Both the position numbers and the translations under genes were made by a program. From assembly GCA_031835245.2 (NCBI GenBank), contig JAVKOQ020000116.1, forward strand, positions 62,001 through 126,000: a stretch of DNA of 64,000 nt, read 5' to 3'. Origin of the DNA: Balamuthia mandrillaris. Its lineage: Eukaryota. This document shows, piece after piece, positions 42,129-47,140 of this stretch (position 1 is the first letter of the stretch; the number at the start of each line of letters is the position of its first letter). The notes beneath the pieces were generated by a model. It had not been told where the DNA came from. It made no database searches and worked only from the letters and a program-made list of their open reading frames with translations.

Positions 42129-42587
42129 ATGCAAGCGCCTTCACTAAGCATGGAAGAGGAGCGTGCTCTGCCGCTCCACAAGCACAAGTTGGTGGCGGAG
42201 GAGGACGCGAGGGTGGAAGAAGAGGAAGAAACAGGAGCGTCAGCGGACCCCGCCAGTCCCTTTCGCAGCCTCCCATTTGATAACTTGGCCATACGTTCCT
42301 TGCCCATCGATCCGGTTTTCAAGAACCACACGCGACAGGTTTCTCTCTTCTCTACCTCCTCCTTTCTTACACTAACAGCAAGGCACGCTTAGGTGCCGAA
42401 TGCATGCTTTTCGTTGGTGAGGCCAACCCGAGTGGAACAACCGAGGCTGGTCGTGGCATCCACCTCCGCTCTTGCCCTCATAGGCTTTCCTGCAGAAGCC
42501 ATAGAAGAGTATCCCGAGGAGATGGCAACCTATTTTTCTGGCAACAGGTAACTTGCTTCTCCAAAGTCGTGTTCAAAACGAGGGGAA

Positions 42588-42633
<46 letters not shown>

Positions 42634-44074
42634 GAAGAGAGAATAAGCCGAAAAAACATGTCAGTGCCGCCTATTGCTAACACCAAGCTTCTCAACAGAG
42701 TCTTGAAGGGAGCGAGGCCAGCAGCACACTGTTATTGTGGCCACCAATTTGGATACTTTTCAGGTCAGTTGGGAGATGGGGCGACCATGTATCTCGGCGA
42801 GATAGTCAATCACAAGGGAGAGCGATGGGAGATCCAGTTTAAAGGGGCTGGTAAGACTCCTTACTCTCGCACTGCTGATGGTAGAAAAGTCCTTCGCTCC
42901 TCTTTGCGAGAATTCTTATGCAGTGAGGTTTGGATCTTCTCCCTCTCTCTTCTCCCTAGCCCATCTCTTCTCACTCTTTTCTCTCCTCTTATTTTTGTTT
43001 GTAGATATAAGCTAACACCTACAATGAAACAGGCAATCCATCACTTGGGCATCCCAACAACAAGAGCTGGCACCTGTGTCACCTCGTCCTCTTGGGTCAA
43101 ACGGGACATTTTTTATAATGGCAACCCGAAAGACGAGCGCTGCACAATCATCCTTCGGATAGCCCCCACTTTTCTGCGCTTCGGCAGCTTTGAGATCTTC
43201 AAGGGCACCGACGAGTATACTGGAAGAACCGGACCAAGCGAAGGTAATAAGGCTATCCTGTTGCAACTCCTGCATTACACCATACGTACCTTCTACCCCG
43301 AAATATGGAGTAAGTACCACGCTCCTCCCGACCAAGACAAGGTCAACATGGAGAGAGAGCATGATGCAGATGTGGAAAATACTTTTATCAACGAGGAGAT
43401 GTATCTTGAATTCTACCAGGAGGTGGTACTGCGCACAGCTCGACTGGTAGCGGCGTGGCAGTGCGTTGGTTGGTGCCATGGAGTGCTTAATACCGACAAC
43501 ATGAGCATTTTGGGACTTACCATCGATTATGGTCCATTTGGTTTCATGGAAAGCTTTGACCCTCATTACATTTGCAATGGCTCTGATAATGAAGGCCGGT
43601 ACTCTTATGAGGTTTGTTTTCTAGTCTTGTTTTTTTTTTGTTCGTTTTGAGGGTTGTTATCCTAATGATTCTTCCATCTTCCCTTGAACAGAACCAACCA
43701 GAAATGTGTCACTGGAATTGTTTAAAACTGGCAGAGGCATTGGAAATGGTTCTTCCTCTCGCGAAGTCTAAACCCCTTCTGGAGAACACTTTTATGACTG
43801 AATTCCGTCGTGCATACCATGAAAAGATGAGACAAAAAGTATATTTTTTTCTAAGATTTATGCAGTACATGGTCACCTTTTGTAATGACTCTCTCTCTCT
43901 CCCTCTCAGCTTGGATTGTTAAACAAGGATTGGCCAGGGGATACCGAGTTGATCAAGTCCTTGCTCGACACAATGCACGAGACAGGCGCGGATTGGACCA
44001 ACACCCTCCGGTCTCTGGCTCGTATTTCTATTCCCAAGCCTTCACAAGCCACAAAATATACCCCTAAGGTTTGC

Positions 44075-44116
<42 letters not shown>

Positions 44117-44868
44117 ACTTGTTTCATGTTTTAAAGGTTTTTCAATTCACTCACTGCAGGAACCACAAGAGGAAAAGGAGAAAGAAGCAGAGGAGGTCGA
44201 AGGAGAGGAGGAAGACCAAGAAATAGAAGACCTGATACAATATCTCTACACCCAAATGCTCAGTGCCTCCCAATTGAAAAAGAGAGAGGCTCCCTCTATC
44301 CCGATCGACAAATTGAAAGGCCTGCTGCGGATCGCTCAACAAGACCCTCGCATGTTAGCTCTATTCGGGCTTCAGAATCCCGCTATGTTGCTCACTGAAT
44401 GGGAGAAATGGAAGAAAGCCAAACTGCTTGAAGACTTGACTCCTGAAAAGAAGAGAAAGCGTGACGCTCATCTTTGGCGGAAATGGTTGCGCTCTTACAA
44501 ACATCGTCTGTCCATGGAAGCACAGAGCGATGATGGTACGTCTTTTCGCTCTATTATCATGGGTTTGTATTCTCTGATGCTACCCTCATTTTTTTGTTTT
44601 TACTTTAGAAGTTGAAGAGCTGAATAAGAAACGCGTATCCGTAATGAACCTGAGTAATCCAAAGTACATCCTGCGAAACTGGATAGCCCAACGAGCTATC
44701 GAAGCAGCTGAAGAGGGCAATTATGACGAAGCTAAACACCTGCTTCGTATATTGGAAGATCCTTACGCTCAACAACCCATTACAGACGAATTGGCTGAGC
44801 AGGATGGCCGACACTACGGTCGTTCTGCGCCAGAAGAGCTTGACATTTGTGTTACCTGATCTTCATAA
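42129..44868 (+). CDS. SELENOO: Selenoprotein O (pseudokinase-fold protein adenylyltransferase), spliced; TGA 44857-44859 = Sec
   Basis: YCGHQFGYFSGQLGDG, KGAGKTPYSR.ADGRKVLRSS.REFLCSE, HGVLNTDNMS, DYGPFGF, NPKYILRNW; ends TGT GTT ACC TGA TCT TCA TAA = CVTUSS. Confidence 0.93.
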
Positions 44869-44920
44869 GCACCTCCTTTTTCCATTTAACTTGGCCTCTG
44901 CTCTTTGTTCTACGTGCGTT

Positions 44921-44953
<33 letters not shown>

Positions 44954-44983
44954 AACCTCTCTCTCTCTCTCTCTCTCTAACCT

Positions 44984-45042
<59 letters not shown>

Positions 45043-45105
45043 CACAATAACAGAAGATAAAGGGCAGAGAAGGAGGTGCTGATGGATAATTCTTCCGGAC
45101 AATAG

Positions 45106-45280
45106 TGGAAGGATGGAAGCCTGCATGAAGAGCCAACCCCAAAGCTCCTAATTGCTGGAGACGGGTTGTGTCTCTTTGTCGCCTTTTTTGTTTTTTCTTT
45201 GCATTGCAGAGAAAAGCACAACAGCTGACAACAGAGAGAGGCTCTGACAGCTCTATTTTGGAGTTGCTTCCTTCCATCCA
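45106..45280 (+). promoter_or_regulatory. SECIS element (type II-like) in SelO 3' UTR, interrupted by a 72-nt insertion
   Basis: ATGAA 45125-45129, AAA 45141-45143 (12 nt after ATGA), apical mini-stem CTCC/GGAG; helix GAGCCAACCC pairs with GGGTTG (45163-68) + GCTC (45241-44); TGAC 45245-48; lower helix GGAAGC/GCTTCC. Confidence 0.7.
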
Positions 45281-45397
45281 TTCATCCACTTTTAGCTGTT
45301 GCTAAGCGGATGAATGGGATTTCACTAACATCTGCAGAAAGAGCAAGAAGACGTATGTAAATAAATAGACTTTATGTTCATAACGTCAAACATGAAA

Positions 45398-45650
45398 CTA
45401 GGCCCAATAGTTATAAGCGAAGCCTTCGTAGTCCAGCTCATCCAAGTTAGTGAGCGGCTTGCCACTACCAAAGACCTTTGCTTCGTAGGCGAGCAGCTGC
45501 TGCATGAATCCGTGGTTGGGGCAAATGACTTGCCGCCTCGTCTTCACGTGCTGATAGGCTTCCTTCAGAGTCCATCGGTGTGCTCTCATCAAGTAGGCCA
45601 GTGTGATTGTGGTGGACCTGCTCACTCCTTTGTCCTTCCCTCATCAGCAC

Positions 45651-45698
<48 letters not shown>

Positions 45699-45834
45699 GG
45701 TTGTACCAGCGTGGCAGTGAATGAGCACCCGATGAGACTGTTTACGAGCGTCCTCTGCTTCAACAATTTAGGAGAGCTAAGCGAGAAGAGATAGAGATAG
45801 AGAGAGAGAGAGAGAGAGATACAGAGAGAGAGAG

Positions 45835-45893
<59 letters not shown>

Positions 45894-47140
45894 GAGAGAC
45901 AGAGACAGACAGAGAGAGACAGAGAGAGAGACAGAGAGAGACAGAGAGAGACAGAGAGACAGAGAGACAGAGAGACAGAGAGAGACAGAGAGAAGAGGAG
46001 ACGTCAAACCAATGAACTGGAAGGAAGTATCAAAGTGACTGGCAATATCCACCATTGGGATGTCTTCCACTCGGACATGTAGGTGCCTTAGCTTCTTACG
46101 GTATGCAGCAACAGAGTCAGCAGCGTCCTCCTCTTCTTGTTGAAAGAGAGAACCACCAGTACAGTTGACCACACAACGAATATCCCAGTGAGCAAGAGCG
46201 ACAATATTATGGGCACTATCCCAGTCTCCCAAGAACAGAAAGTCATCGTAAACCATGGATGGCCAACTTGAAGGAACGTTCCCGATGCTTGCATCTGCAT
46301 CACCATGTTGGGAAGAGGAGGAGGTGGTGGTGGTGGTGCACAGGAAAGGAAACTGTTTGGCGAATGCTGCCAAGCCCTCCTTCATGAGGTAGATCGTTTT
46401 GAGGTCGTGTTCATGCTTGTGCCGCTTCAGCACCTCCACAAAGCGACGCATTACACCTTCAGCCTCCGCCGTCTCGATCTCTTCTTCCTCTTCCTGCCCG
46501 ACCTTCTCGTTGCTCTGTTTTTCAAGATCTGATGTTGGAGGAAAGTCACTGACGAGGAGGACGCAGTCCATCGACCTCTCTCCGAACTTTGTGACAAAGG
46601 CTTGCCATAGCTGAACGTCCCAATCGTCTTCTTCTCCTTCTTCCTCTTGCTCTTGCTCTTCCTCTTCTTCCTGCTCCTTCCTTTCTTCTGTCTCCTCTTC
46701 CTCTTCGTCTTCTTCTTCTGTCTCCTGAACTGCTGTCGAGAGAGAAGAACTTGGAGTGCGGATGGGAGGAGGCAAGGCAAACGGCACTGAAGCAGTGAGG
46801 TGCAGCTCTGCAAAGGCACTCTGTGGTCGTACGTCTATCACACACAACCTGTTTGTTGTTGTCGTTGTTGCTGTTAACCGACAAGTGGGAGGGGACGGCA
46901 GAGGCCTGCATACCCAAACAAGCTACAGCTCAACAGGTTATAGGTCTGCAAGGCGGAGAGCTCTTTCACTTCCAGGCCGCTTTCTGCAGCCTTTTGCTTC
47001 TTTGTGTAATAGGAGCTGTTGCCGCGCACCCCTCCTTTCCCTTTTCTTCTTCTTGCCTTGGCTTTGCTTGCCTTTTTGCCTGGCGGGGCCTCGCCTCCTC
47101 CTCCTCTTTTGTTGGCTGCTTTGCCCTCTCCTCTTTGCAT
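45398..47140 (-). CDS. Dual-specificity phosphatase with N-terminal rhodanese-like domain (MAP kinase phosphatase-like), spliced
   Basis: VIDVRPQSAFAELHL and LMKEGLAAFAKQFP (rhodanese); FLFLGD, VEDIP, HCHAG/VSRS active site; PNHGFMQQL. Confidence 0.88.

Follow-up and report, generated by a model that had tools for sequence, protein, structure and literature searches.

The SelO gene, its terminal UGA and its 3′ UTR

The window, that is, the whole 64,000-nt stretch of Balamuthia mandrillaris DNA analyzed here, carries a selenoprotein O (SelO) gene on its plus strand (42129–44868). The gene has eight coding exons (42129–42338, 42393–42547, 42699–42927, 43033–43611, 43692–43838, 43910–44068, 44160–44535, and 44609–44868) with matches to Pfam PF02696. 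Exon 4 was 100% identical to the public protein P0001 ("Selenoprotein O [Balamuthia mandrillaris]"), and the exon model equaled P0001 up to an in-frame UGA (44857–44859), which directly follows the final residue of that protein. This predicted selenocysteine codon lies in the context C-V-T-[UGA]-S-S-UAA. The public models P0001 and P0121 are 701 aa long, stopping at the UGA without the predicted Sec-Ser-Ser end; P0122 and P0123 are SelO models with retained introns, and P0124 and P0125, unrelated peptides of 53–56 aa, share the 90% cluster of SelO, probably through a clustering artefact.

Among the 120 homologues listed, 100 (P0001 included) had V-T or V-S as their last residues, as though truncated at the SelO UGA, 7 ended in CSS, and 13 had other ends. 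Scanning metagenomes with the last SelO exon yielded 14 loci, none from a close relative (best segments 40–58% identical). Five of these read VT-UGA-SS-stop and seven S-C-S-S; one reached the contig edge at CVT, and one was not resolved. Both SelO loci found in viral contigs were of the Cys type: L015 (2401–4002) and L016, from a viral collection (28% GC, one giant-virus bin), encode an intronless SelO of at least 533 aa with 51% identity over the best segment. Since homologues end in either UGA-SS or Cys-SS, the Balamuthia UGA sits at the Sec/Cys position of a known selenoprotein family, and a SECIS is therefore expected in the SelO 3′ UTR. The C-terminal Sec regulates the redox state of SelO. 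No tRNA gene was found within the 64-kb window. Acanthamoeba has selenocysteine machinery, according to the available part of the source (PMC8038987); the literature searched, excluding subscription papers and supplements, contained nothing on Balamuthia selenoproteins.

To characterize the transcript, we compared 8 of the 24 listed sequencing runs with 45045–45640, reading only 3–5% of the three large RNA runs; a joint was listed only if it had at least three reads from two starts, or a contig. A spliced 3′ UTR intron (44914–45053, plus strand; GT..CAG, 140 nt, mostly CT repeat) starts 45 nt beyond the stop codon. Overhanging ends that match the exon upstream lay before 45054 in X14 and before 45055 in X21 and X12; the junction was exact in X14 and differed from the window by one letter in X21 and X12. 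Because this intron was spliced in X12 and X14, these two runs are RNA, while X17 could be DNA. Once the intron is removed, the distance from the UGA to the SECIS core is 125 nt (265 nt in the genome), beyond the minimum of 51–111 nt. RNA depth extended to about 45340–45385 (X21, X22, and X14), near a likely poly(A) signal (AATAAA, 45360–45365, plus strand). With depth reaching 45345–45385 beside this signal, the mRNA holds the whole element described below; an mRNA end before 45248, which a preliminary description of this DNA had suggested checking for, does not apply, as RNA depth passes that position. A dual-specificity phosphatase gene with PF00782 in its last exon converges on SelO from the minus strand (about 45398–46922), its stop codon lying about 35 nt from the SelO AATAAA.

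A probable SECIS with a split helix II

The feature behind SelO is real: a SECIS-like element, on the plus strand in the transcribed 3′ UTR, whose helix II is split in its 3′ strand by a 72-nt hairpin. By direct sequence reading, each part claimed in the preliminary description was found where it had been placed. The 5′ half is canonical, as had been said. The 5′ side of the kink-turn core (45121–45129) reads CUG-CAU-GA-A, with UGCA before the core (UGUA in a second allele). AUGA (45125–45128) is followed by A45129, the continuous 5′ strand of helix II, GAGCCAACCC (45130–45139, GAGC plus CAACCC, from the sequence and fold predictions), C45140, and an unpaired AAA (45141–45143). The AAA starts 12 nt after AUGA, so that AA stands at 12–13 nt, within the 10–13 nt typical of SECIS elements, and it is accompanied by a type II apical mini-stem, CUCC/GGAG (45145–45148/45157–45160), with an 8-nt loop; the whole apical part spans 45141–45162 (pair probability 0.99).

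On the 3′ side, helix II's upper portion, GGGUUG (45163–45168, pair probabilities 0.48–0.97), is separated by the insert from a lower part at 45241–45250. The latter comprises GCUC (45241–45244), the UGAC core (45245–45248), and an AG that can pair with CU at 45121–45122. GCUC-UGAC thus completes the helix II pairing and supplies the GA, as proposed: once the intervening 72 nt are looped out, helix II has 10 Watson-Crick pairs. The core-to-core span is 124 nt, versus 52 in type II SECIS. Compared letter by letter with the UGAN/KGAW core, UGAA/UGAC has the tandem GA but ends in C rather than W; KGAW is the 3′ core consensus given in the available part of PMC3753652. Another UGAC, inside the insert (45226–45229), was rejected as 3′ core since it has no 4-bp helix above it, and only 45245 fits.

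Below the internal loop, a helix I is predicted between 45103–45120 and 45266–45290, in a register that is ambiguous and varies with context; 45278–45287 alternatively pairs with 45309–45318. A strong hairpin at 45278–45318 (z −6.35) shares sequence with helix I's 3′ strand and might compete with that helix. A closed kink-turn stem (CUG/CAG) is also possible and, together with the remaining features, occurred in 0 of 5000 shuffles. We did not count it towards activity, because its fold-model probability is at most 0.07 and closing the internal loop is reported, in the portion of PMC1874613 available, to lower SBP2 affinity.

The insert (45169–45240) had been described as self-folding, and it is: alone, it folds as a single rod with its ends together (−25.8 kcal/mol, z −3.97, with 0 of 200 shuffles as stable). 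The second small hairpin that had been noted before the lower helix is likewise present, at 45250–45264 on the 3′ side of the internal loop (z −4.43, pair probabilities 0.6–1.0). The minimum free energy (MFE) fold of 45090–45300 was the branched form (z −4.58). No second copy of the insert occurs within the window, where the best other matches are 14–18 nt long.

Pattern searches and chance expectation

We re-implemented the loose SECISearch pattern, whose criteria, as given in the available text of PMC1802603, include a continuous helix II with at most one insertion. Neither the UTR, in its genomic or spliced form, nor the last exon contained a match, but the element was matched once the insert was left out in silico. 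The SECISearch filter also discards Y-shaped candidates, as described in the part of PMC3753652 available, and with its 72-nt insertion the element does not have the continuous, unbranched helix II that such criteria demand. An Rfam search of 10 kb at E up to 1 was empty; at E up to 10 there were only weak unrelated matches and no SECIS. The suspicion that standard finders would miss this element thus held for Rfam and for the re-implemented loose pattern, the two finders concerned. No other match to a SECIS pattern was present in the UTR; another canonical SECIS serving SelO, which the preliminary description had named as grounds for refutation, was thus not seen. A split pattern, written after the element had been seen, matched, across both strands of the 64 kb, this site alone. 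Seventeen viral matches to a 16-letter core pattern were rejected as chance, only 6–14 of the next 33 letters matching.

To estimate the chance level, we fixed the 5′ half and shuffled the next 217 nt in 5000 trials. A 4-bp Watson-Crick partner followed by GA arose in 235 of these; partner, GA, and a rod-like insert arose together in 5 (32 when G-U pairs were allowed). These tests were designed after the element was seen, so their rarity is somewhat overstated. The split arrangement is well beyond chance.

Predicted folding and the second allele

How could a branched element work? The ends of the insert are predicted to adjoin, so that GAGC/GCUC and CAACCC/GGGUUG could stack as a pseudo-continuous 10-bp helix II. 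On the 5′ strand GAGC runs straight into CAACCC, which would let the two halves stack end to end while the arm projects outward. Such stacking would keep the 12-nt core-to-AAA distance, which is treated as fixed in the text available from PMC2761289. From established SECIS biology, the SECIS-binding protein would then bind the G.A/A.G core and the four Watson-Crick pairs above it, and the AAA would be presented as usual. According to the available part of PMC1874613, SBP2 requires the tandem G.A with a Pu-Py pair on top of it and no fewer than two Watson-Crick pairs. The four pairs below the branch supply the pairs required, and the first of them is G-C, the Pu-Py type that SBP2 is described there as preferring.

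There is, however, a rival fold in which AGAG (45129–45132) pairs with the 5′ CUCU of the arm and no GA core forms. With coaxial stacking allowed, the competent fold was the MFE structure for the window allele (−73.1 versus −72.5 kcal/mol), and the second allele gave a tie (−66.2 for the competent and −66.3 for the rival fold). Sampling in the spliced UTR returned the competent fold in 1238 of 3000 structures and the rival in 1099 of 3000 for the window allele, against 967 and 1338 of 3000 for the second. If 2 kcal/mol of binding energy is assumed, the competent fold would make up more than 90%. Sheared pairs and protein are outside the energy model, and this balance is a prediction. With a rival fold predicted to be about as stable, it would fall to protein binding to pick out the active form, and the branched SECIS probably has low activity. 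Other features point the same way. In the accessible portion of PMC2761289, helix 2 is named among the main factors setting how strongly an element recodes, even mismatches in it being associated with weak activity; weak recoding is reported there to be predicted by the combination of a G-C pair in that helix and a U shortly before AUGA. In the window, a U stands three letters ahead of AUGA and the first pair is G-C, although the exact pair position meant in that paper may differ. With these two features, and human SelO also being weak, we would expect low activity.

The contigs of X12 revealed a second allele, with 14 differences to the window over 256 sites (roughly 5% divergence here). None of them falls in the 54-nt core; the 72-nt insert has 6, and the remaining 130 nt have 8 (P 0.033). 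This statistic depends on the core limits, since adding 45121–45124 gives 1 in 58 and P 0.13. The change concerned, C45124T, creates UGUA before the core, a motif reported for all Dictyostelium SECIS (PMC2375036, available part). The second-allele insert refolds as a rod (z −2.99) with its basal stem kept and one G.U turned into A-U. Of the six differences within the insert, three disrupt pairing in the window fold, all of them higher in the arm, whose upper part is not conserved. No compensatory double change was seen between the alleles, and no divergent relative carrying the element was found in the runs, the metagenome scan, or the viral contigs. The pattern is consistent with the arm being a tolerated passenger with a preserved base, and it speaks against the sequence of the arm mattering.

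On this evidence, we favor, with a probability of about 0.6, the reading that this sole SECIS-like element of the SelO 3′ UTR acts as an unspliced three-way junction and recodes the UGA of C-V-T-U-S-S as selenocysteine. Its most serious rival, which we consider unlikely, is that a recent 72-nt insertion damaged a SECIS that had been canonical, leaving it with poor recoding or none, so that most SelO protein would end at the UGA. The stability of the rival fold, equal to that of the competent one, fits such damage, as does the insert differing at 6 of 72 sites between alleles, much like its flanks (8 of 130), with three of the changes breaking pairs; the public models do end at the UGA, though gene finders do so by default. 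However, both halves of helix II are intact, the core itself holds 0 of the 14 allele differences, UGA-SS-stop is intact, and the ends of the arm are still paired in both alleles. The insert is also present in both and is hence older than their roughly 5% divergence. Distinctly less probable is a stronger version of the branched reading, in which the side arm would be a conformational switch whose two equal-energy folds, with and without the kink-turn, set the frequency of Sec-Ser-Ser ends, and in which branched SECIS would form an overlooked protist class discarded by finders.

Retention of the insert in RNA

The preliminary description had offered two readings of the insert: a non-canonical three-way-junction SECIS, or a SECIS assembled by splicing and acting as a switch. 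The insert was covered by five of the eight runs, from four studies (X21, X22, X12, X14, and X17); X23 covers only 45440–45610, and X18 and X16 have no contig on the stretch, so these three give no evidence either way. In the raw RNA of X21 and X22, 10 and 11 reads gave a depth of 4–6 with no dip over the insert. Gap-free records crossed it in X12 (records 2 and 3, 45139–45252), X14 (record 2, 45125–45352), and X17 (record 3, 45147–45308). No joint removing the insert was found in any of the five covering runs, at low depth. With 0 of ~9 spliced, the upper bound for a minor spliced form is ~28–30%, and mates may overlap. None of the 10 X21 reads fitted only partly, as against 6 of the 11 in X22; word depth in X12 was 44.9 over the insert versus 68.4 and 84.4 alongside.

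The reading in which splicing assembles the SECIS is thus not supported, the insert being retained in all covering runs, whereas the three-way-junction alternative is supported. We regard it as very unlikely that the insert is an alternatively spliced intron, running from GT at 45168 to AG at 45240 or CAG at 45234, such that a minor spliced mRNA alone carries a working compact SECIS and splicing switches Sec insertion. A form below about 28% would escape the present depth (0 of ~9), and the lower X12 word depth and the partly fitting X22 reads leave it some room. The 73-nt GT..AG stretch (45168–45240) lies within the size range of the eight introns of the SelO gene (54–151 nt), whose donors are loose, and the spliced product passes the loose SECIS pattern. 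Yet the five runs from four studies lack any joint, in libraries where the neighboring UTR intron is spliced, X21 has no partly fitting read, and records 2 and 4 of X12 are whole where a spliced path would branch or rejoin (inferred from the graph; contigs drop rare forms).

The signals themselves also argue against an intron. The GT noted near the start of the insert is present at 45168, but the 72-nt insert itself begins with TG, and removing the 73-nt stretch would strip G45168 from helix II and leave a bulge. The donor is GC in the second allele (C at 45169). The acceptor at 45240 is GAG, as against YAG in all eight SelO introns, and the putative branch A lies 12 nt from the end (6 nt for CAG 45234), compared with 17–18 nt in the three introns with a near CTAAC. 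Both CTGAC (45225–45229) and the AG are buried inside the hairpin stem, and the stretch folds at −0.35 kcal/nt versus 0 to −0.12 in the eight introns. It therefore lacks the combination of GT, branch point, and YAG seen in the SelO introns and was not found skipped in mature RNA, the low depth leaving room for a minor form.

Equally improbable is that the hairpins serve 3′-end processing or stability of the SelO or the convergent phosphatase mRNA, or form a small-RNA precursor, the SECIS likeness being incidental or SelO using another signal: the phosphatase gene does stop at about 45400 on the minus strand, the stretch has several strong hairpins, and there are weak Rfam matches to miRNA precursor models, far below cut-offs, but exact SECIS motifs stand at the right spacing behind a Sec-position UGA with no other candidate, RNA depth has a gap at 45385–45440 between the two genes, and the arm is polymorphic.

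Comparison with known SECIS elements

Comparisons here refer to the available parts of the papers cited. The Balamuthia element resembles type II (form 2) SECIS (PMC3753652, PMC2761289) in its 3′ UTR site, AUGA..GA core, AAA bulge at 12 nt, apical mini-stem, and lower closing helix. It differs in the 72-nt hairpin in the 3′ strand of helix II, in the second hairpin in the internal loop, and in having UGAC rather than KGAW. As it lacks a continuous helix II, it is not filed as a canonical type II SECIS. Oversized SECIS are known from protists, in Dictyostelium and Ostreococcus, where the extra RNA lengthens the mini-stem above the AAA (PMC2375036); in Balamuthia, by contrast, it forms a branch on helix II between the core and the AAA. 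Mammalian SelO SECIS, with CC for AA (PMC3316567) and weak in reporters (PMC2761289), offer a deviant, weak signal in the same family, but there the deviation is in the loop sequence (PMC3316567), not a branch.

For splicing, the 3′ UTR of SelS (SELENOS) is a precedent in which splicing and neighboring stem-loops govern Sec insertion (PMC3628699). In the text available, however, SelS splicing removes a whole SECIS and assembles none from two exons, and the Balamuthia insert was not seen spliced. Each vertebrate SECIS examined in the accessible part of PMC3316567 lies within one exon. The literature searched, which left aside subscription papers and supplements where similar elements could stand, described no SECIS whose helix II contains an inserted hairpin.

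Two of the eukaryotic metagenome loci deserve mention. At L005 (2262–2378; also L006 and L007), a SelO ending LKVT-UGA-SS-stop is followed by an oversized SECIS-like element: helix II has 14 bp, AA stands at 17 nt, and the two cores are about 110 nt apart (z −5.55); Rfam matched no SECIS there. Its very long apical stem is as in known oversized protist SECIS. L013 (1894–2886; also L014), ending VT-UGA-SS-stop, had no clear SECIS within the 0.9–1 kb that follow it; the only candidate, weak and of long span (core 2208/2357), is absent from L014, and an AUGA-N12-AAA half lacks an adjacent GA.

Implications

At a minimum, the annotation is corrected, in that the public protein models stop at the UGA without the predicted U-S-S end. 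In the prevailing view, helix II is a compact ruler from the kink-turn to the AAA, and finders demand a continuous stem and drop Y-shaped candidates. A SECIS with a side arm on helix II, as suggested here from one species and two alleles, would surprise a SECIS specialist. If the element is active, only the 5′-strand distance and the stacked geometry would count, and the 72-nt arm would mark a side of the SECIS on which bulk is tolerated at the ribosome. Protist selenoproteomes would then be under-called.
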